A stretch of 64,000 bases of DNA from positions 1 to 64,000 of IMG/VR virus record IMGVR_UViG_3300046697_000300. One strand, given 5' to 3'. Below the pieces are notes generated by a model. That model did not search any database, was not told where the DNA came from, and worked only from the letters and a program-made list of their open reading frames with translations. Shown here in pieces: positions 4,834-28,199 of this stretch. The position numbers were made by a program, and so were the translations under genes. This DNA is from a virus. The first letter of the stretch is position 1; the number at the start of each line of letters is the position of its first letter.

Positions 4834-4863
4834 CCCGGCCCCGCTTTTGAAGGCGGGGCCGGG
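4834..4863 (-). other. perfect 11-bp GC-rich stem-loop between 4875..5699 and the scaffold-like gene
   Basis: CCCGGCCCCGC (4834-4844) / GCGGGGCCGGG (4853-4863), 8-nt loop. No U-tract on the coding (minus) strand. Confidence 0.5.
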
Positions 4864-4874
4864 TGCCTGTCCGT

Positions 4875-5699
4875 TTATTGCTGCTCTTCTACCGGCTTGC
4901 CGCCTGCCTCTGGATCCCCGGCGTCGTCGACGGCGTCGAGGAAACTCTCGGCAACCGCTTCGGGCTCGGGTTCGGGCTCATTTTCCGGCTGCGCTTCCAT
5001 GGTCTCGGCGACCGCCTCCGGCTCGAGGTGGGTCTGGCCCTCGTCGACGAAGGTCTGAGGTTCGGCGACGACGACGCCTGACTCGGGCTGCGCCTGGGGC
5101 TCCTCACCCGGTTGCGCACCGCCGGCCGTTGCATCGGCGGCGGCCTTGTCGGCCGCGTCGGCGTCGAGATCTTCGGCCGATGGGAGTTGCTGCTTCACGA
5201 TGCCGGAGCTGAGGGCTTCGGCGAGGGCGCCCGGTGTGCGCAGCGCGCGTGCCATCGCGCTCGCCTGAATGGCTTCGACGATTCTGTTCGAGGCCACCTT
5301 GTGCATCTCGACATCGGGATCGGCGATCAGCGCGAGCAAGGCCTCAACCTTGTCGAAGGGCTGCCAGCCGCTGGCCCTGGGGTTCGCGTTCATCTGCGCC
5401 TCGAGGTCCTTGGCGGCCTCGTCGCGTTCCGGGCCCGGCGGGAACTGGGCTGCGGCGGTCTGGCGCGCGTACTCGCCGGCAACGCCCAGGCGAATCGCGG
5501 CTGCGATCAGCATCGGGGCTCCGGTCACGGTTGACGGCACGCCGGCCTCGTCCAGGTAGATCAAGCTGAGGTGATGGCTGACCATCCTATACCAGCCGAG
5601 CCTCCCGATTGCGGGACTGCCGAGCGCAACGGCGCGATACCCAACGCCACCGACCACGTACAACACGGGGTCGCCCTTCTTGATTGCTGCAAAGTCCAT
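4875..5699 (-). CDS. hypothetical phage protein with strongly acidic C-terminal tail
   Basis: 274-aa ORF with GGAGGAatgtcATG at 5699. Lies between the portal candidate and the scaffold-like gene. Confidence 0.65.
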   Translation of the reverse strand: MDFAAIKKGDPVLYVVGGVGYRAVALGSPAIGRLGWYRMVSHHLSLIYLDEAGVPSTVTGAPMLIAAAIRLGVAGEYARQTAAAQFPPGPERDEAAKDLEAQMNANPRASGWQPFDKVEALLALIADPDVEMHKVASNRIVEAIQASAMARALRTPGALAEALSSGIVKQQLPSAEDLDADAADKAAADATAGGAQPGEEPQAQPESGVVVAEPQTFVDEGQTHLEPEAVAETMEAQPENEPEPEPEAVAESFLDAVDDAGDPEAGGKPVEEQQ

Positions 5700-5713
5700 G
5701 ACATTCCTCCGTT

Positions 5714-8275
5714 TTATTTTGCTCCGCCGGCGACCTTGAGAGTGTCGAGGGCGGTCTTGACGACATTGTTTGAAGCAGTGACCTGCGGGCCGATGGCCCC
5801 GCTCTTGCCCTGGGGCGGCAGCTCGGCGAGCTCGACCTCGCGGTCAACCATGGCCAGAGCCTTGCCCAGCAGTTCCTTGAGGGCCGCCTGGGCGCCCTGC
5901 TGTGTTGGATCGGGCGGAGGTGGCGGCGGCTGGCCGGCAGCGCGCACCTTGAGTTCGAGGTTGGCTTTGCGCACGCCCTGCGTGGTCTGCATGTCCTGGC
6001 ACATGCCGAAGTAGCGCTCGACCTGCGACCATCCGATGGGATTTTTGACGCGCAGGTCGGCGTTTTCGATCATGAACTCCTGAATGGTCGGAATCACGAT
6101 CGAGTAATCCCAGAGCACGGAGGGTTCGACGGGCAGCTTCACGCCGATCGAGCCGTCCGGCATCTCTATCGGCATGCCCGGCTGCTCGAGCAGCACGTTC
6201 ACATCCTGGAGGGTTTGGGCGCGCTGCGCCTTGACCGGCGAGACCACGTTCGGGTAGAGACGGCTGGCGATGGTGTCCTGGTTCGCCGGCACGTCGAGGA
6301 TGCGCTGCGCTGCCGGGTTGCCCTTGGTCAGCCCATCCATCAGGTGCTCGAAACTCTCGCGCTCCTGCTCGGCGGTCAGCGGCATATCCTGGTCCTCGTC
6401 GGGGTAGACTTTAACGCGGCCGCGCATCTTCTCGAGGTTGACGTAATTGTTGCGGAACTGCGAGCCCTGGTCTTCGACGACTTCCCATATCTCCTTCGCG
6501 GCGCCGCACTTGAGCAGCTTTTGCAGGCACTCGATTGCGTTCTCGGCGGCCTGTGCGTGCTCCTCCTTCACATTCTCCCAGTACGGGGCCATGCCCAGGT
6601 TCGCCTGGCCGAGCTGCATATTCTGGCCGCCATAGGTCTCAACGTCGGGGTTGGTGCCGGCGCCTGCCAGTTGCGGCGGCATGCCGTTCAGCAGTTGCGC
6701 AAACATCCAGAGCATCTGCGGGTAGAGCGCGAGGCCCGGGTTCACGGGGATGTCGAAGTGCATGAAGGCTTCTGACATCGGCCGTTTGTCGCCCGCGCCA
6801 AACTTCATCGGCACCGGCAGCACCGTCGCCGGGGCCAGCGTGTTGCCCTTCCACTTGTCGGTGTCGATCCTCGAGCCGTCCACCAGGTTGAGCCCGCAGG
6901 CCGCCCGCATCATGTAGTCGTCGTAGAGCTGCATCGCGGAGTTGAACCGCTCGTTGAAACTGACCACGTTTTCGGCGATCGAGATCGAGTACACGCCAAA
7001 CTTCTCGTGCAGCCGGCAGAGCGTCCACTCCTTGACCAGCGTGGCCTTCTTCACCGCGACGACTTTGGACCCGATCATCGAAATCTTGATCCCGTCAGGC
7101 GCTGCCGCCGTCATGCGGTCGGCGTAGTCCTTGTCGCCTTTGCGCCGGTAGGCCATGGGCTGCACCCAGACCTGCGAGAACGTCGGCCGCTGCTGGTCGG
7201 TGTCCGAGGTGTAGGCCGTGCCCATCGAGTAGCTCTCGTTGCGGCGCAGCCGGTCGTAGTCGGCGATCGACGAGGTGGAGGCGACCGCGCCCTCCTTGAT
7301 GTCTTCCCACGCCGCCGGGAACATCATGCGCGCCTCGCCCACGTCGATCTCCATATCGAACGCGAGCAGCGGCACGCCGGCCAAATCCTTGGCCTGGGGG
7401 TCGGTGTCGATCTCAAGGCCTGAGTGGATTGACTGCTTTACCATGGCCCGCGGAATTTTCTGGACTCCGGTCACGGTGAGCACGTTTCTGGGCGGCCCGG
7501 CTTCCATATAGTCCTGGGGTCCCATCCTGGCCGAGCACCCGGGGCAGCTAAAGTTCGTGTCGTCGCCGGCGCCGAGCTGGTCGAGCGGCGTTTCCTTGCC
7601 GCATTTTGGGCAGTGCATGCGCTCGGGCACGTCGATCGTCATCTCGCCCAGCACTGGCTGCGTGTCGTAGCCAGACCAGGCGCCGTCGAGCACGCCGCGG
7701 GTGTACTTGAAGTAGGAGCCGTACAGGTAGAGGAACTCAAACTCGCCGCGGGTCATCTGCCGGATCCCGTTGCGCCGTTCAATGATGCCGATGGCATCCT
7801 GGGCGGCCTCGGCGGTGGTCAGGTCGGCGAGCACGCGCGCGTCCTGCGGCCGCACGATGGTCATCGGCACCTCGCGGCTCATGTTGCCGATAAAGGTCTG
7901 GCCGAGCATCAGCGTGACCGGGTGGATAAACCGCTCGAGGCCTGTCGACTCGCCCTGGCGCACCTTGTCCGAGCCCTGGTACCAGGCCAGCGAATCGACC
8001 CAGTTGCCGGCCTGCTCGTTCCAGTCCAGCACCTGCACGCCGCGATACATCAGCACGTTCTTCATCCAGATCCGCATGCGCTCGAGCCGGTCCATCGACC
8101 ACTGGTTCCGGTACATGGTGATGATCGAGACGGTCTGGTTGATGTCCTCTTCGCTGAGGTCGAGCTCGATCCACTGGTTCTCGGCCGGGCGCTGCTCGGG
8201 GTTCTCTCCTGAGATTGCGGCAACCTTGGATCCAGTTGAGCCTGGAAGCGTAACCGGGATGATGCTTGCAGCCAT
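5714..8275 (-). CDS. putative portal protein (853 aa) with an embedded CxxC..CxxC zinc ribbon
   Basis: First large gene of a portal-X-scaffold-capsid order. TGATG coupling to the upstream gene. Function assigned from position and size, not from a recognised portal motif. Confidence 0.5.
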   Translation of the reverse strand: MAASIIPVTLPGSTGSKVAAISGENPEQRPAENQWIELDLSEEDINQTVSIITMYRNQWSMDRLERMRIWMKNVLMYRGVQVLDWNEQAGNWVDSLAWYQGSDKVRQGESTGLERFIHPVTLMLGQTFIGNMSREVPMTIVRPQDARVLADLTTAEAAQDAIGIIERRNGIRQMTRGEFEFLYLYGSYFKYTRGVLDGAWSGYDTQPVLGEMTIDVPERMHCPKCGKETPLDQLGAGDDTNFSCPGCSARMGPQDYMEAGPPRNVLTVTGVQKIPRAMVKQSIHSGLEIDTDPQAKDLAGVPLLAFDMEIDVGEARMMFPAAWEDIKEGAVASTSSIADYDRLRRNESYSMGTAYTSDTDQQRPTFSQVWVQPMAYRRKGDKDYADRMTAAAPDGIKISMIGSKVVAVKKATLVKEWTLCRLHEKFGVYSISIAENVVSFNERFNSAMQLYDDYMMRAACGLNLVDGSRIDTDKWKGNTLAPATVLPVPMKFGAGDKRPMSEAFMHFDIPVNPGLALYPQMLWMFAQLLNGMPPQLAGAGTNPDVETYGGQNMQLGQANLGMAPYWENVKEEHAQAAENAIECLQKLLKCGAAKEIWEVVEDQGSQFRNNYVNLEKMRGRVKVYPDEDQDMPLTAEQERESFEHLMDGLTKGNPAAQRILDVPANQDTIASRLYPNVVSPVKAQRAQTLQDVNVLLEQPGMPIEMPDGSIGVKLPVEPSVLWDYSIVIPTIQEFMIENADLRVKNPIGWSQVERYFGMCQDMQTTQGVRKANLELKVRAAGQPPPPPPDPTQQGAQAALKELLGKALAMVDREVELAELPPQGKSGAIGPQVTASNNVVKTALDTLKVAGGAK

Positions 8276-8643
8276 CAGTTCGGTCTCCTGCCGTTCAAAC
8301 TAAAGGTGCCGTTGGCGATCGCCGTGCGCGCGGCCTCGTGCACGTCGTCAAAGCTGATCTGCCGCTTCGGCGCCGGCGCCGAAGATTCCGGCGGCGCGGC
8401 CGCAGTCGCGACCGCCCGTTCATAGATCGGCGGCTGTCCGCTCAGTTGCGCGATGCGGTCGGTCAAGATCCGGCGTTCCTGCTCGGCCGTCTCGGCCCGC
8501 GCGTTTGCTGCCGCAATCAGCGCTGCGTCGCGAGCCTCGGCCATCTCGCGGGCGGCTTCGGCCTTGGCGGTTGCGCTCTCGGCAATCCTCACCCATGCCT
8601 CCGCGGCGTCCAGCCTCGCTCTCGAAACCAACGGCCATCTCAT
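8275..8643 (-). CDS. hypothetical coiled-coil phage protein (122 aa)
   Basis: Track ORF 8275..8703. Start reset to ATG 8643, which overlaps the stop of the 57-codon ORF upstream (ATGA). Confidence 0.55.
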   Translation of the reverse strand: MRWPLVSRARLDAAEAWVRIAESATAKAEAAREMAEARDAALIAAANARAETAEQERRILTDRIAQLSGQPPIYERAVATAAAPPESSAPAPKRQISFDDVHEAARTAIANGTFSLNGRRPN

Positions 8644-8813
8644 GCGAATATCCCCATCAGCCAGGCACCCAGCCTGGTCTCCGACGTTCCGGCATCCTGC
8701 CACTTGTCACCGACCCATATCAGGGTCAGGAAGAAGTCGGCGGTAATGCCGCGGCGCTCGCGAAACTCCGAGTACCAGCCGGCCCGGACGCGAACGTGCC
8801 AGGGCGCGTTCAT
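8640..8813 (-). CDS. hypothetical small protein (57 aa), below the ORF-track size cut-off
   Basis: Hand translation gives MNAPWHVRVRAGWYSEFRERRGITADFFLTLIWVGDKWQDAGTSETRLGAWLMGIFA*. ATGA overlaps at both ends (8810-8813 and 8640-8643) link it into the gene chain. Confidence 0.45.
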   Translation of the reverse strand: MNAPWHVRVRAGWYSEFRERRGITADFFLTLIWVGDKWQDAGTSETRLGAWLMGIFA

Positions 8814-9037
8814 TTCTTGCGCCTGGCCTTCTCTTTGGCGCTGGCCATGTCAAATTTACGCTTCACCGCGCCACGCACGCGGGCCTTCTCTTCCGGCGTG
8901 CCGTTCTCGCTCACCCTCGACAATGCGTTCGCCCCGTGGCTCCGGTCGGGAATCGGATAGGCGCGCTTCTCGGGAATGGCAAAGGCTGAGTCGGGCAGTG
9001 CGTCGCGGGTTGCCGTGGTCAGTTTCGCCATCGTCAA
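8810..9037 (-). CDS. hypothetical small basic phage protein (75 aa)
   Basis: Complete ORF, head-module position, Lys/Arg-rich C-terminus. Confidence 0.6.
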   Translation of the reverse strand: MTMAKLTTATRDALPDSAFAIPEKRAYPIPDRSHGANALSRVSENGTPEEKARVRGAVKRKFDMASAKEKARRKK

Positions 9038-10663: not shown

Positions 10664-11461
10664 TTAGTTGGTTTTCGGAACCCACGGCCGGCCCATGTGG
10701 CCGGTCCACGAGTCGCAGGTTTCGTTTCCCCCCGCGGCGTCGTAATAGCCGTAGGGGATCATCAGGTCGCCCTCGAGACCCCAACCGGAGCCCCAGGAGT
10801 TGCGTGCAAGTTCCACGCCCTTTGTGTCGTCGTAGCCGTAGACCAGCAGCTCGTGGCCGCCGACCGGCGTCTCGAACCTCGCGGGCAGCGGCAGCAATCC
10901 AGTCTCGGCCACCTCGTCGCTCTCGATCGCCTTGTACACCGGGATGCCGATCGTCCGGCAGTAGCCGGAGGCCAGCACCGACTTCGCGGTTGCAAGGCCC
11001 TCGTCGAACAGCACGCGGTGGTAGGCGCCGATCCTAAAGGAGTACGCGGCCGCATCCATCGGCGCGGTCGGCGCCTGGCCGATCGCGGTGTCAATAAATG
11101 GATCCGCCGGGTCCGGGCAGACGCCAAGCTGGTTGAGGACCTGAAACAGGGTGCGGCTGTCCGAGCCGTCGTCGGCAGGGAATGTGCCGTTCTTCATGCG
11201 TTCCTGGGCGTAGAGGAAGAGCGCCGAGAACATGGCCGGGCTAACGAGTTTGGTTGGGAAAGCGGAGGTGAACGCGCCGTAAAGCCAGTCGAGCCATCCT
11301 GCTCCTGACTGGCCTGTGCAGCTTCCGCTCGCGCCCTGGTCGCGCACCGGCCCGAGGCCTGGCTTCATGCTCACCGTGGCCGGACCCAAGGCCAGCGACC
11401 GCATCGCGAGGTGATCGCGAACGTCGAATGGGTCTTTCCGGACTCTGAAAATGCGGCTCAT
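10664..11461 (-). CDS. papain-like cysteine peptidase (C1 family-like)
   Basis: GSCTGQS (Cys), GGHELLVYGYDD (His) and NSWGSGWG (Asn) match the C1 catalytic-triad contexts. GAGGTccacATG. Confidence 0.7.
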   Translation of the reverse strand: MSRIFRVRKDPFDVRDHLAMRSLALGPATVSMKPGLGPVRDQGASGSCTGQSGAGWLDWLYGAFTSAFPTKLVSPAMFSALFLYAQERMKNGTFPADDGSDSRTLFQVLNQLGVCPDPADPFIDTAIGQAPTAPMDAAAYSFRIGAYHRVLFDEGLATAKSVLASGYCRTIGIPVYKAIESDEVAETGLLPLPARFETPVGGHELLVYGYDDTKGVELARNSWGSGWGLEGDLMIPYGYYDAAGGNETCDSWTGHMGRPWVPKTN

Positions 11462-11737: not shown

Positions 11738-11956
11738 CTAGCGGTGCCAGGTGACGGTCACCGTCGGCGCGGCCAGGGTTGCTACGTTGTACTTCCCGGT
11801 CTCGATCACGTTCGGCGGCGTGCTCGGCAGCAGTGGCGGAGCCAGCGACGCGATCGTTGTCACGGCCGGCGCGCCCAGCGCGGGCGGGTAAAGTGCAATC
11901 AATTGCGCGGTCGAGGCCGGCGAAGGCGGTCCGGTCCATGCCGGCGTGAGGTTCGT
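11738..11956 (-). pseudogene. 3' fragment (72 codons + stop) of a lipoprotein gene split by the IS
   Basis: High-GC3 frame TNLTPAWTGPPSPAST...TVTVTWHR* has no start codon of its own. It begins exactly at the IS right-end boundary and is in frame with 13696..13848. Confidence 0.6.
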
Positions 11957-12140
11957 TTGATACTCCCCACGGATAAATCCGGGGGATTCTAGCGTTCTTT
12001 CGAACGCCTTAACTGTTTCAACCAGCGTAGCTGAATTTCTCCAGACTTACACACTGTCCGCAGTCGTTTAACGACTCCATGTATCCCAAGGCGTCGAGTA
12101 TCCTGATCCCTTCCGCTTTCAGATTTAGAGATGCGTTTCC
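11941..12140 (-). ncRNA. predicted TnpB guide RNA (omega/reRNA) region: tnpB 3' end + right end + 16-nt flank
   Basis: Inference from the known IS200/IS605 TnpB organisation. Hairpins at 11965-11985 and 11992-12007. 5' extent is not determinable by eye. Confidence 0.3.
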
Positions 12141-13193
12141 ATCCCGGCTATGATGACTTCCACAAGAAGGACAGTCCCACTCTCTATCTGAAAGAGTTAG
12201 GTCATTGTTTTTGTATCCGCATTCGCTGCACAGTTTCGTGCTTGGAAAGAACCTATCAACTTGGACTGCGTGCCTGTTATTCCAAAGTGATTTATACTTC
12301 CATTGTCGAACTGTTTCTCCGAATGCGGCATCGAGCATCGACTTAGCCAGCTTGGTTTTCGCAAGACCTTTGATGCTTAAATCTTCAAGACACAGTGCTG
12401 GATACTTTTCAACCAGACCATGCGTTAGTTGATGAGCAAAATTACTCCGTAGATTTGAAATCCGTTCATGGACTTTTGCAACAGAGACTACAGCTTTGGC
12501 ACGGTTACGACTACCTTTAACGCGACGGCACACCTTTTGTTGAGCTTTCTTTAGCTTTTGAGCATGACGACGGTAGAACTTTGGAACTGAGACCTCGCCC
12601 CCGTCAGACAGCGTTAGATATGTATTCAATCCAAGATCGCCACCTTGCATCTGCTCAGGTTTTACCTTTGGCAAACATTCTGTTAATTCAAACTCAGAAA
12701 CTAATATAACAAACCAACGACCCGTTGCTGTGCGCTTAAATGTCGCTGATTTTGTTTCACCGTCAATGATTCGTGATTGACGTATCTTTATCCAGCCGAT
12801 CTTAGGAACATACACTTTACCATCTTTTACCACTACTCTCTGTGGTATACGGAAGGTTTGTTTTGTACTCTTCTTGGTTTTGAATACAGGAAATCCGGCA
12901 TTCATCTTTGGGTTGAAGTGGTTATCGTATGCTCGTTTTAGATTCTTTAGAACCTGCTGCAAAGACTGAGAATCAAAGTCATACATCCACGGCCTCGACT
13001 CTTTGAATTTAGTGAGTTCCACGGATAATCGTGACTGAGATATGCTTTTCTTGTTTTCTTTGTAGAATGTCCGGCAGCAATCCAAAGCAAGGTTCCACAC
13101 AAGCCTAGATGCCCCCGCTTGGCACAAAAGTTTCTGTGCTTCGTCAGACGTTGGCTCCATGCGGAATTTGAACACCTTGCGCTGTTTAGACAT
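12018..13193 (-). CDS. tnpB: TnpB (RNA-guided RuvC-type nuclease of IS200/IS605)
   Basis: VFKFRMEPT N-terminus, GGDLGLN (RuvC-I), CLEDLSIKG (RuvC-II), CSECG...CPSCG zinc ribbon and RDGNASLNL (RuvC-III). ATG 13193 chosen over the TTG at 13208. Confidence 0.9.
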   Translation of the reverse strand: MSKQRKVFKFRMEPTSDEAQKLLCQAGASRLVWNLALDCCRTFYKENKKSISQSRLSVELTKFKESRPWMYDFDSQSLQQVLKNLKRAYDNHFNPKMNAGFPVFKTKKSTKQTFRIPQRVVVKDGKVYVPKIGWIKIRQSRIIDGETKSATFKRTATGRWFVILVSEFELTECLPKVKPEQMQGGDLGLNTYLTLSDGGEVSVPKFYRRHAQKLKKAQQKVCRRVKGSRNRAKAVVSVAKVHERISNLRSNFAHQLTHGLVEKYPALCLEDLSIKGLAKTKLAKSMLDAAFGETVRQWKYKSLWNNRHAVQVDRFFPSTKLCSECGYKNNDLTLSDREWDCPSCGSHHSRDGNASLNLKAEGIRILDALGYMESLNDCGQCVSLEKFSYAG

Positions 13194-13587
13194 TTTTCTG
13201 ATTTTCAACGTACTGTTTTATTACTTCCAGTGGAGACCCGCCAACTGTTGAAACAAAATAGCTATTCGTCCACAACGTCGGCAACTTTGATTTCAGCGTT
13301 CTAAACTCATTTCTCAGCGTGTGAGATGAAACACCCTTCATGTTCTTGACAAGGCGGTGAATGCCAAACTGAGGATCAATTTCCACGAGTACGTGAACAT
13401 GGTCTGGCATGATTTCTAGCGCAATTACTTCTGCCTTATACTTCTCTGCCGCTTGTCGAATAACAGATTCGCACCGTGCTGCAATATCACCAATCAAAAC
13501 ACTGCGCCTATACTTCGGAGTCCATACCACATGGTACTTGCTCGAATACACCACATTTAAGTTCGATTTGTAGTCTTCTAGTGCCAT
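13186..13587 (-). CDS. tnpA: TnpA, Y1 HUH transposase of IS200/IS605
   Basis: YHVVWTPKYRR, HUH motif HVHVLV and catalytic Tyr context WTNSYFVSTVGG. ATG 13587 chosen; the track start TTG 13623 coincides with a -35 hexamer. Confidence 0.9.
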   Translation of the reverse strand: MALEDYKSNLNVVYSSKYHVVWTPKYRRSVLIGDIAARCESVIRQAAEKYKAEVIALEIMPDHVHVLVEIDPQFGIHRLVKNMKGVSSHTLRNEFRTLKSKLPTLWTNSYFVSTVGGSPLEVIKQYVENQKNV

Positions 13588-13593
13588 AACAAA

Positions 13594-13623
13594 ACTATAC
13601 AGTACATCGGTGTATATTGTCAA
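13594..13623 (-). promoter_or_regulatory. putative tnpA promoter inside the IS left end
   Basis: TTGACA (13623-13618), 18-nt spacer, TATAGT (13599-13594). The ATG follows 6 nt later, so the mRNA would be nearly leaderless. Confidence 0.4.
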
Positions 13624-13695
13624 GAACTATTTTTCTACGCAAAACACGCCTTATATCCCCATGCCTGAAGGCAGGGGCTTTACGGCGCTTTCTCG

Positions 13696-13848
13696 GTAAA
13701 TGTACCCACAGGTGTAGCCGGTCGGGCACGCCGGCGCATTGTTTGAGACGGTGACGGTGGGCGGCGGGGTCACCGGCGCCTGGCCGTGGCTGCAGCCGAC
13801 CAGTGCGGCGGCGAGCACAAGGACCAGAAATTCGTTGCGTAGCTTCAT
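13696..13848 (-). pseudogene. 5' fragment (51 codons) of the IS-split lipoprotein gene
   Basis: MKLRNEFLVLVLAAALVGC lipobox. Track ORF 13651..13848 runs 14 codons into the IS before stopping. The junction falls exactly after TTAC. Confidence 0.6.
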
Positions 13849-13858
13849 TTGAATCCTC

Positions 13859-14236
13859 CTACGGGTTGATGGTTACGGTTGGCTTCGCCAGCGCTGGCGG
13901 CGACGGAAAAGACGGCACGGCGACTACTGCGACGTTGCTGTTGGGGCTGGTGACGCCCTGGGCGTCGACGCTCCTGACCACATAGTCGTAGGTCTGGAGC
14001 GGTTGAATCGTGAGGTCGAGGTAGCTGGTCACGGCGACCGGCGCCGTGTTGAGTTGCTGGTAGGTTGCGAGTCCGTCGGGCGAGCGGTAGGCATTGTAGC
14101 CGGCGACCGGATCCGGCGACGATGCCGGCGCATCCCAGGTCAGCGTCACGGTCTCCTGGGTCACCTTGGCCTGGGCCTCCGCGGATCTCGCCCATACCGC
14201 CAACACAACCAGCCCGATGGCAATCGCTCTCAGCAT
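13859..14236 (-). CDS. exported FN3-like domain protein
   Basis: ATG 14236 after AAGGAG. Signal peptide MLRAIAIGLVVLAVWARSAEA. VTLTWDAP...YNAYRS...YDYVVRSVD pattern typical of fibronectin type III folds. Confidence 0.65.
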   Translation of the reverse strand: MLRAIAIGLVVLAVWARSAEAQAKVTQETVTLTWDAPASSPDPVAGYNAYRSPDGLATYQQLNTAPVAVTSYLDLTIQPLQTYDYVVRSVDAQGVTSPNSNVAVVAVPSFPSPPALAKPTVTINP

Positions 14237-27822: not shown

Positions 27823-28070
27823 CAGCACCTTTTCAACGGACGGCAGGAGGTCGCGGGACTTACTGCCGCCCGGATTAGCGGCCCGACTTGGCCCGGGCTG
27901 CTAACTGAATCCGTAATTGCGTGGGCGACGGTCCCTTTCGTGCTGGACCCGACTTGTATTGCGTCATTCACGTCGCAACCTACGCCCGCGCAAAATCGTG
28001 GGCCCAGCTACCGCTGCTCGCCTTCGCCAGGCCCCAAAGCCGGCGAAGCAGCAGAAAGCCGGCACCGAGG

Positions 28071-28199
28071 TTAATCGAGAGTCAGGTCCGCCTCCAGAAA
28101 AACCATCTCAAGCGGTCTGCGTTTGATCCCGGTGTAATCTCCGCTCGCGATCCGGTGCTCTTCGCCTTCGATGTAAAACTGCAACCCGTTGAGGCTCAC
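28071..28199 (-). CDS. possible 42-aa ORF coupled by a GTGA overlap
   Basis: GTG 28199 overlaps the stop of 28196..28570. VSLNGLQFYIEGEEHRIASGDYTGIKRRPLEMVFLEADLTLD. It could instead be the frameshifted tail of the upstream gene. Confidence 0.3.
   Translation of the reverse strand: MSLNGLQFYIEGEEHRIASGDYTGIKRRPLEMVFLEADLTLD

Follow-up and report, generated by a model that had tools for sequence, protein, structure and literature searches.

An IS608-like element in a peat phage lipoprotein gene and the IS-free sibling alleles matched by its predicted TnpB guide

A lipoprotein gene of a phage found in peat metagenomes is interrupted by an IS608-like element that we take to be a recently arrived, active and ordinary insertion sequence, whose TnpB would act chiefly in the element's own retention (probability about 0.7 for this explanation as a whole). 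TnpA would move the element by peel-and-paste into TTAC sites, and the insertion described here would have been joined to a 168-bp TTAC-to-TTAC deletion in which the core of an FN3-like lipoprotein was lost. A transcript running from the 3′ end of tnpB through the right end into the flank would load TnpB with the guide ACGAACCUCACGCCGG, directing it to cut DNA that carries TTAC and a match to the guide, ~15-21 bp from the target-adjacent motif (TAM). Such cutting would serve mainly self-retention: once excision has left an empty joint, TnpB would cut it, and repair templated by an IS-plus copy would put the element back. IS-free sibling genomes sharing a cell with the element would also be cuttable, as a side effect.

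The omegaRNA, the TTAC TAM, the cutting of the donor joint and the retention itself are probable from established knowledge of the family; the anatomy, boundaries, mobility and target-site preference of the element, the deletion, the co-occurring perfect targets and a joint best read as an excision product are observed in the sequences themselves. The element is ordinary and its retention mechanism is already published. What the locus adds is population evidence: one site offers records of the donor, the recipients, a probable excision product, recombinants and candidate escape deletions, and so a natural test case.

Anatomy of the element and its predicted guide RNA

All positions refer to the window, the 64,000-nt stretch of DNA that was analysed. 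It covers nearly all of a circular phage genome of 65,655 bp (the source contig), which its 127-base terminal repeat marks as complete and which encodes a terminase, a tyrosine integrase and GroEL. The features of the element are the following.

11957-13695, minus strand: intact IS608-like IS200/IS605 element, 1,739 bp; the same element stands at other TTAC sites
13696-13699, minus strand: TTAC (TTAC1), predicted TAM as well as left cleavage site; stands before the left end at all insertion sites seen
13657-13681, minus strand: left end, with DNA guide AAAG (13681-13678) and hairpin (13677-13657); the IS608 GL is AAAG (PMC3201880)
13594-13623, minus strand: promoter-like TTGACA-18-TATAGT upstream of tnpA, a consensus match only, at 11 of 12 positions
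13186-13587, minus strand: tnpA, Y1 transposase, 133 aa (PF01797, E 2e-42)
12018-13193, minus strand: tnpB, 391 aa (PF12323, PF01385 and PF07282, three Pfam domains of IS605 TnpB)
11957-12097, minus strand: predicted omegaRNA/reRNA scaffold, about 140 nt, its 5′ end placed by conservation
11957-11989, minus strand: right end, with GAAT (11989-11986), hairpin (11985-11965) and TCAA (11960-11957)
11941-11956, minus strand: predicted 16-nt guide ACGAACCUCACGCCGG, read from the flank, its length set by analogy with ISDra2 (PMC8612924)

Independent evidence for the boundaries comes from copies of full or 98% identity in other flanks, in which TTAC precedes the start and TCAA forms the end; the element has a GC content of 44% against 60-65% in its flanks. 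A Y1 HUH gene, an adjoining tnpB, end hairpins and insertion at a fixed tetranucleotide without duplication place it in the IS605 group of the IS200/IS605 family, as do ends that carry subterminal hairpins with 4-nt DNA guides and no inverted repeats. The HUH motif of TnpA (HVH) lies at residues 63-65 and the catalytic tyrosine is Tyr126; tnpA and tnpB overlap by 8 bases. In the right-end hairpin, a G-C pair is replaced by a compensatory A-T pair in the L001 copy. Identity with an IStron was rejected, there being no Rfam hit and just 108 bp from the left end to tnpA, and so was identity with TldR, given that the catalytic residues, tnpA and both ends are all present.

By its ends and gene order, the element is closest in kind to IS608 of Helicobacter pylori, with which it shares tnpA followed by tnpB, a TTAC target, the GL AAAG, a TCAA right end, subterminal imperfect hairpins and the lack of target duplication (PMC3201880, PMC5027513). 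It differs in the spacing of TTAC from the left hairpin (18 nt, 19 in IS608) and in residing in peat phage genomes.

The RuvC triad of TnpB consists of D186 (12636-12638), E270 (12384-12386) and D351 (12141-12143), all kept in 12 full-length cluster members, and a C4 zinc finger includes C322 and C341, which bears out the initial annotation's view that all three RuvC motifs and the zinc ribbon are in place. TnpB aligns along its length with ISDra2 TnpB (E 2e-66), the three RuvC acids being in register. The ISDra2 protein, known as a TnpB-reRNA complex (PDB 8H1J, 8BF8; PMC8612924), is a full-length homologue with the same triad and zinc finger; its RNA stems from the 3′ end of tnpB together with the right end and takes its guide from the flank, as predicted for the window. 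In contrast, ISDra2 targets TTGAT, and residues of the presumed TAM-reading region differ from those of the window TnpB.

The predicted scaffold is conserved both in sequence and in pairing. The strand at 11941-12140 folds better than 200 of 200 shuffles (z -2.9). Across 9 related right ends the sequence is near-invariant from ~12097 to 11957 and diverges past TCAA; 8 of the 40 predicted pairs change on both sides among these ends, which represent about three lineages, so that the counts are not independent. The covariation score of the scaffold is 0.241, compared with 0.03-0.07 when the pairing is slid. No Rfam model matched the predicted guide-RNA region. Directly after TCAA, the minus strand reads ACGAACCTCACGCCGG at 11956-11941, exactly the 16-nt guide proposed beforehand. 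TTAC is likely to be the TnpB TAM as well as the insertion site, by analogy with ISDra2 and the Geobacillus elements, in which the TAM equals the transposon target (PMC8612924; bioRxiv 2023.03.14.532601); SfaTnpB, a tested TTAC-reading TnpB, has the TAM NTAC (PMC12781874).

Transcription of the element somewhere in peat is seen in one metatranscriptome, whose contigs cover tnpA and tnpB with 0 differences from the window variant, a match from which the source copy cannot be named. Among the RNA contigs of run X15, none lay over the guide or the phage flanks, but contigs drop short RNAs, so this is no evidence of absence.

Copies at other sites and the interrupted lipoprotein gene

Copies with 0-1 differences stand at other sites in four contigs (L053, L055, L056 and L059), whose neighbouring genes match phage gene families, and a further contig (L060) has the same TnpB with a different right flank. 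More distant copies include L062, with 18 differences within its first 1,600 bases, and one in a 44%-GC phage, with 39-41. For the full element, TTAC stands before all 7 distinct left junctions, as it does in L008 and L014; the base before TTAC varies and no target is duplicated. The earlier identification of TTAC as the target site therefore holds at every left junction seen. Near-identical copies at other TTAC sites indicate that the element is recent here and mobile, and the 22 synonymous against 9 amino-acid changes that separate it from the L001 copy indicate selection for function.

The contigs that hold the full-length copies found (L053, L055, L056, L059, L060, L062 and L001) are phage-like or unassigned and have 44-62% GC; none of the copies found is in a GTDB genome. 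The element appears to pass from phage to phage at a single peat site, implying that these phages share host cells. In L060, a second, different TnpB gene of 443 aa follows the element copy by ~800 bp (L060:2269-3600). A widespread copy (L062-L071) ends in GGGGAG GATG TCAA instead of GGGGAG TA TCAA, which suggests a shifted end and guide.

Short non-autonomous relatives of ~315-350 bp have lost tnpA and nearly all of tnpB but retain the two ends and the entire RNA scaffold (L008:2830-3144, L009:2830-3144, L014:691-1039, L021 and L007; several lie in large-phage fragments). They could be stand-alone guide cassettes that serve TnpB in trans. L008 and L009 share the left flank and differ in the right, giving different guides at apparently one insertion; this looks like a rearrangement adjacent to the right end, similar to the 168-bp deletion of the window.

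The two remaining parts of the lipoprotein gene flank the element.

13696-13848, minus strand: 5′ part, codons 1-51 of the 179-aa wild type
11738-11956, minus strand: 3′ part, codons 108-179

Between these parts 168 bp are absent from the window allele; the gap opens immediately behind one TTAC and closes with the last base of a later TTAC. The gene of the sibling phage encodes 179 aa and is 168 bp longer, and since wild-type alleles have this extra length, the insertion came with a TTAC-to-TTAC deletion. Removing the element in silico leaves an open gene of 123 codons. No 123-aa homologue was found in a family whose 15 members, leaving out a 238-aa paralogue, have 176-181 aa. The initial annotation had expected TnpA excision to restore the uninterrupted allele; instead, the IS-free join carries a 56-codon deletion. 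The lost codons hold several invariant residues and the predicted core strands of a weakly FN3-like fold (best match to FN3 domains, E 0.015). Protein-pattern scans with the 3′ piece gave no match.

Either of two plausible TnpA reactions could have produced the deletion, with the element entering the second TTAC and its left end being rejoined to the first, or entering the first TTAC and its right end being rejoined after the second; the products are indistinguishable here. After such a deletion the wild-type allele is still matched by the guide, yet the intact gene can no longer be regained by excision. Inferring an IS605 'empty site' from one genome can therefore mislead.

IS-free targets, sibling recombination and loss of the element

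The wild-type 179-aa allele still carries TTAC followed by a 16/16 match to the guide. Such natural IS-free alleles co-occur with IS-plus genomes, in agreement with the earlier prediction that the uninterrupted allele would be a target. That it would be the only one does not hold: besides its 16/16 site the sibling has a 15/16 site in an upstream gene, mismatched at position 12, and chance 20/20 matches occur in unrelated bacteria. This upstream gene of the sibling, of 238 aa (L041:4426-5142), consists of an FN3 domain and a diverged duplicate of the lipoprotein domain, the duplicate supplying the 15/16 site.

IS-free 179-aa alleles, mostly of the sibling phage, were found in 15 samples and the IS-plus allele in 8; both were found in 3 (3300048778, 3300037095 and 3300050026), from which we infer presence in the same cells. 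No IS-free locus in the 15 samples had a change in the TAM or guide match. Because perfect targets persist without TAM or seed changes, sibling cutting, if it occurs at all, is rare or recent.

Other searches for targets were negative within their scope. Exact empty-site scans for the window site and the L001 site gave no match among viral contigs, in collections that may omit near records; the phage genome holds no self-target (best, 4 mismatches); five other phage records carrying or neighbouring the IS family hold no target; and the guides of other copies matched none of the loci gathered in this analysis. Outside this phage, three exact 20-base matches occur in metagenome contigs, two of them in ppk1 (L011:12625-12644 and L013:3162-3181).

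The sibling phage is 99% identical to the window over 4837-8820 and 92% over the lysis genes, and has a different module upstream. In most sibling contigs the 192 bp preceding the site and at least 66 bp following it match the window exactly, whereas L040 differs there by ~10%. Identical patches shared by the two phages include 10680-11035 (356 bp) and 13696-13887 (192 bp). Through module swaps beside the 356- and 192-bp patches, the region of lysis and secreted-protein genes exists in six or more haplotypes.

By module typing, the element stands next to sibling-type upstream DNA in L082 and next to sibling-type downstream DNA in L048, from the same sample, and in L051, a Logan contig; the reciprocal IS-free recombinant types are L075 and L043. 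A crossover immediately to the right of the cut, the product expected of short-tract homing, was absent from the IS-plus alleles found. Every window-type lipoprotein-holin haplotype with a readable junction was IS-plus (8/8), and no IS-free one was found among them.

Loss of the element was read from public contigs placed on the window. In run X2 the IS-plus allele is continuous, at a depth of about 676. In X12, a single peat run, three joints bypass the element, on short bridging contigs of 88% likeness to the window. They involve these further features.

11888-11891, minus strand: TTAC3, the next downstream TTAC, end point of the IS-plus-69-bp deletion in X12
11938-11946, plus strand: 9-bp repeat ATGCCGGCG, at guide positions 11-19, one end of the 2,184-bp deletion in X12
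14122-14130, plus strand: the 9-bp repeat again, inside the FN3 gene upstream

The joint of 11956 to 13696 corresponds to precise excision (depth 3.2, one short contig at 88% likeness) and, being impossible as a wild-type allele, is best read as an excision product. In the joint of 11886 to 13695, TTAC is joined after the next TTAC, with the element and 69 bp removed (depth 5.3). The joint of 11937 to 14122 lies between the 9-bp repeats and removes 2,184 bp (depth 7.3). Contigs end at 11892, 13696, 14122 and 14151, the positions predicted by the three branches, and the summed depths agree approximately (left side, 15.7 versus 13.2; right side, 13.1 versus 11.7). All three products are in frame, and the two larger deletions erase the target. 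Two further joints, 11989 to 13619 and 11993 to 13264, were excluded, being attributed to short relatives in other genomes. The X12 form of the phage diverges from the window past 14693, with another arrangement of the secreted-protein module.

The repeat at guide positions 11-19 overlaps the ISDra2 TnpB cut zone, 15-21 bp from the TAM, and a deletion between such repeats would be expected if a cut were mended through microhomology. With no more than three 9-bp repeat pairs available, the breakpoint is a 1-in-3 choice.

Retention, spread between siblings and the place of known systems

In the IS605 family, the established role of TnpB is retention through cutting of the empty site (PMC8612924; bioRxiv 2023.03.14.532601), and the TnpB of IS608 increases retention (bioRxiv 2022.10.12.511977). 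Compatible with this preferred reading, the two not being mutually exclusive, is an RNA-guided drive or interference between siblings, in which TnpB cuts IS-free siblings on co-infection or superinfection, these are lost or turned IS-plus, and target-destroying deletions are the escape products. We hold this to be possible, with the balance against it. It gains from the two phages recombining, and so meeting in cells, and from the three samples that hold targets and IS-plus genomes together, but IS-free alleles are commoner than IS-plus ones and their target is unmutated. That all window-type haplotypes are IS-plus, though the insertion wrecks a conserved gene, also speaks for it, and would be explained equally well by clonal spread of one prophage. 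The IS allele beside sibling-type DNA on either side (L082; L048 and L051) points to transfer between the phages. Against this stand the reciprocal recombinants L043 and L075 and the missing class of crossovers just right of the cut; some mosaics, too, may be assembler joins across the 192- and 356-bp identical patches.

The X12 deletions are similarly ambiguous. Target-free products (5.3 and 7.3) outnumber precise excision (3.2), and one ends within the guide, as escape from cutting would predict; the few repeat pairs on offer weaken the second point, and selection for a restored reading frame would equally give in-frame products. Much the same pattern would arise if selection acted against a polar insertion. 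The stronger claim, of a drive in progress, has IS-plus sweep one lineage and cross into the two-target sibling, with survivors of IS loss enriched for target-erasing deletions and one of these repaired at the TnpB cut site; we regard it as unlikely.

Published work supplies a precedent in plasmids, where a TnpB gene drive was described by Mears et al. (PMC11870625), and a 2026 review names 'transposon non-restorative homing' and treats co-infecting phages as a theoretical target (PMC13565253). In both the plasmid case and ours the IS-plus replicon is predicted to cut IS-minus copies of the site. The plasmid drive, however, has been shown for plasmids only, whereas the rivals here are natural phage haplotypes, and the window donor lacks 168 bp present in the recipient, so that homing needs longer resection. 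Phage homing endonucleases (T4 SegB/SegF and intron HEGs, with marker exclusion; PMC13565253) would likewise bias inheritance in co-infection and co-convert flanking markers, but they recognize a fixed site through protein, while the target of the window TnpB would be set by RNA and change with each jump. TldR, a phage-borne nuclease-dead TnpB (PMC10705468), is also a TnpB homologue in temperate phage; it is domesticated and without RuvC activity, whereas the window copy has the three catalytic residues, tnpA and both ends. We found no paper testing a TnpB drive between phages in a literature search without most subscription journals. At this locus, existing reads make it possible to ask whether inheritance between co-infecting phages is biased by TnpB in the way known for plasmids; if it is, the element could favour its own spread between phages.

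It is rather improbable that the element is a passenger, a mobile IS with a TnpB that is silent or irrelevant in the phage, clonal spread of a single prophage having made the IS-plus allele common. The X12 deletions would then reflect use of the wrong TTAC by TnpA together with microhomology deletions, favoured because the holin and peptidase genes downstream are thereby freed of a polar insertion. This account fits the unaltered targets and the lack of RNA evidence for the guide of the window copy, and TnpA chemistry alone could explain why the 168-bp and 69-bp deletions both end at TTAC, alternative end use being documented (bioRxiv 2023.03.14.532601). It accommodates less readily the purifying selection on the nuclease residues and RNA structure, the intact promoter-like site and the transcription of the element somewhere in peat.

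That the guide is kept to attack host ppk1 (polyphosphate kinase 1) is highly improbable and largely refuted. The exact matches in L011 and L013 (TTAC plus 16/16), two peat-type metagenome contigs, are what suggested it. Some 0.2-0.3 matches of this kind should turn up in every 1e11 bases; among 401 Terriglobales genomes, matches with <=2 mismatches were found in 4, compared with ~20 hits for controls; and the guide simply equals the flank of a fresh insertion. At this chance level, the ppk1 matches are harmless unless the bacterium carrying them is the host.

The host itself is weakly pointed to as a member of Terriglobales: a scaffold-bearing short relative sits in a Terracidiphilus MAG and, of 301 Terriglobales genomes, 22 hold terminase relatives at 29-35% identity, a tally that includes the unpublished G014, G026, G028, G032 and G036. 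Elsewhere in the phage genome, the minus strand at 27993-28071 of the window matches the Rfam CyVA-1 RNA, with a score barely above the gathering score.
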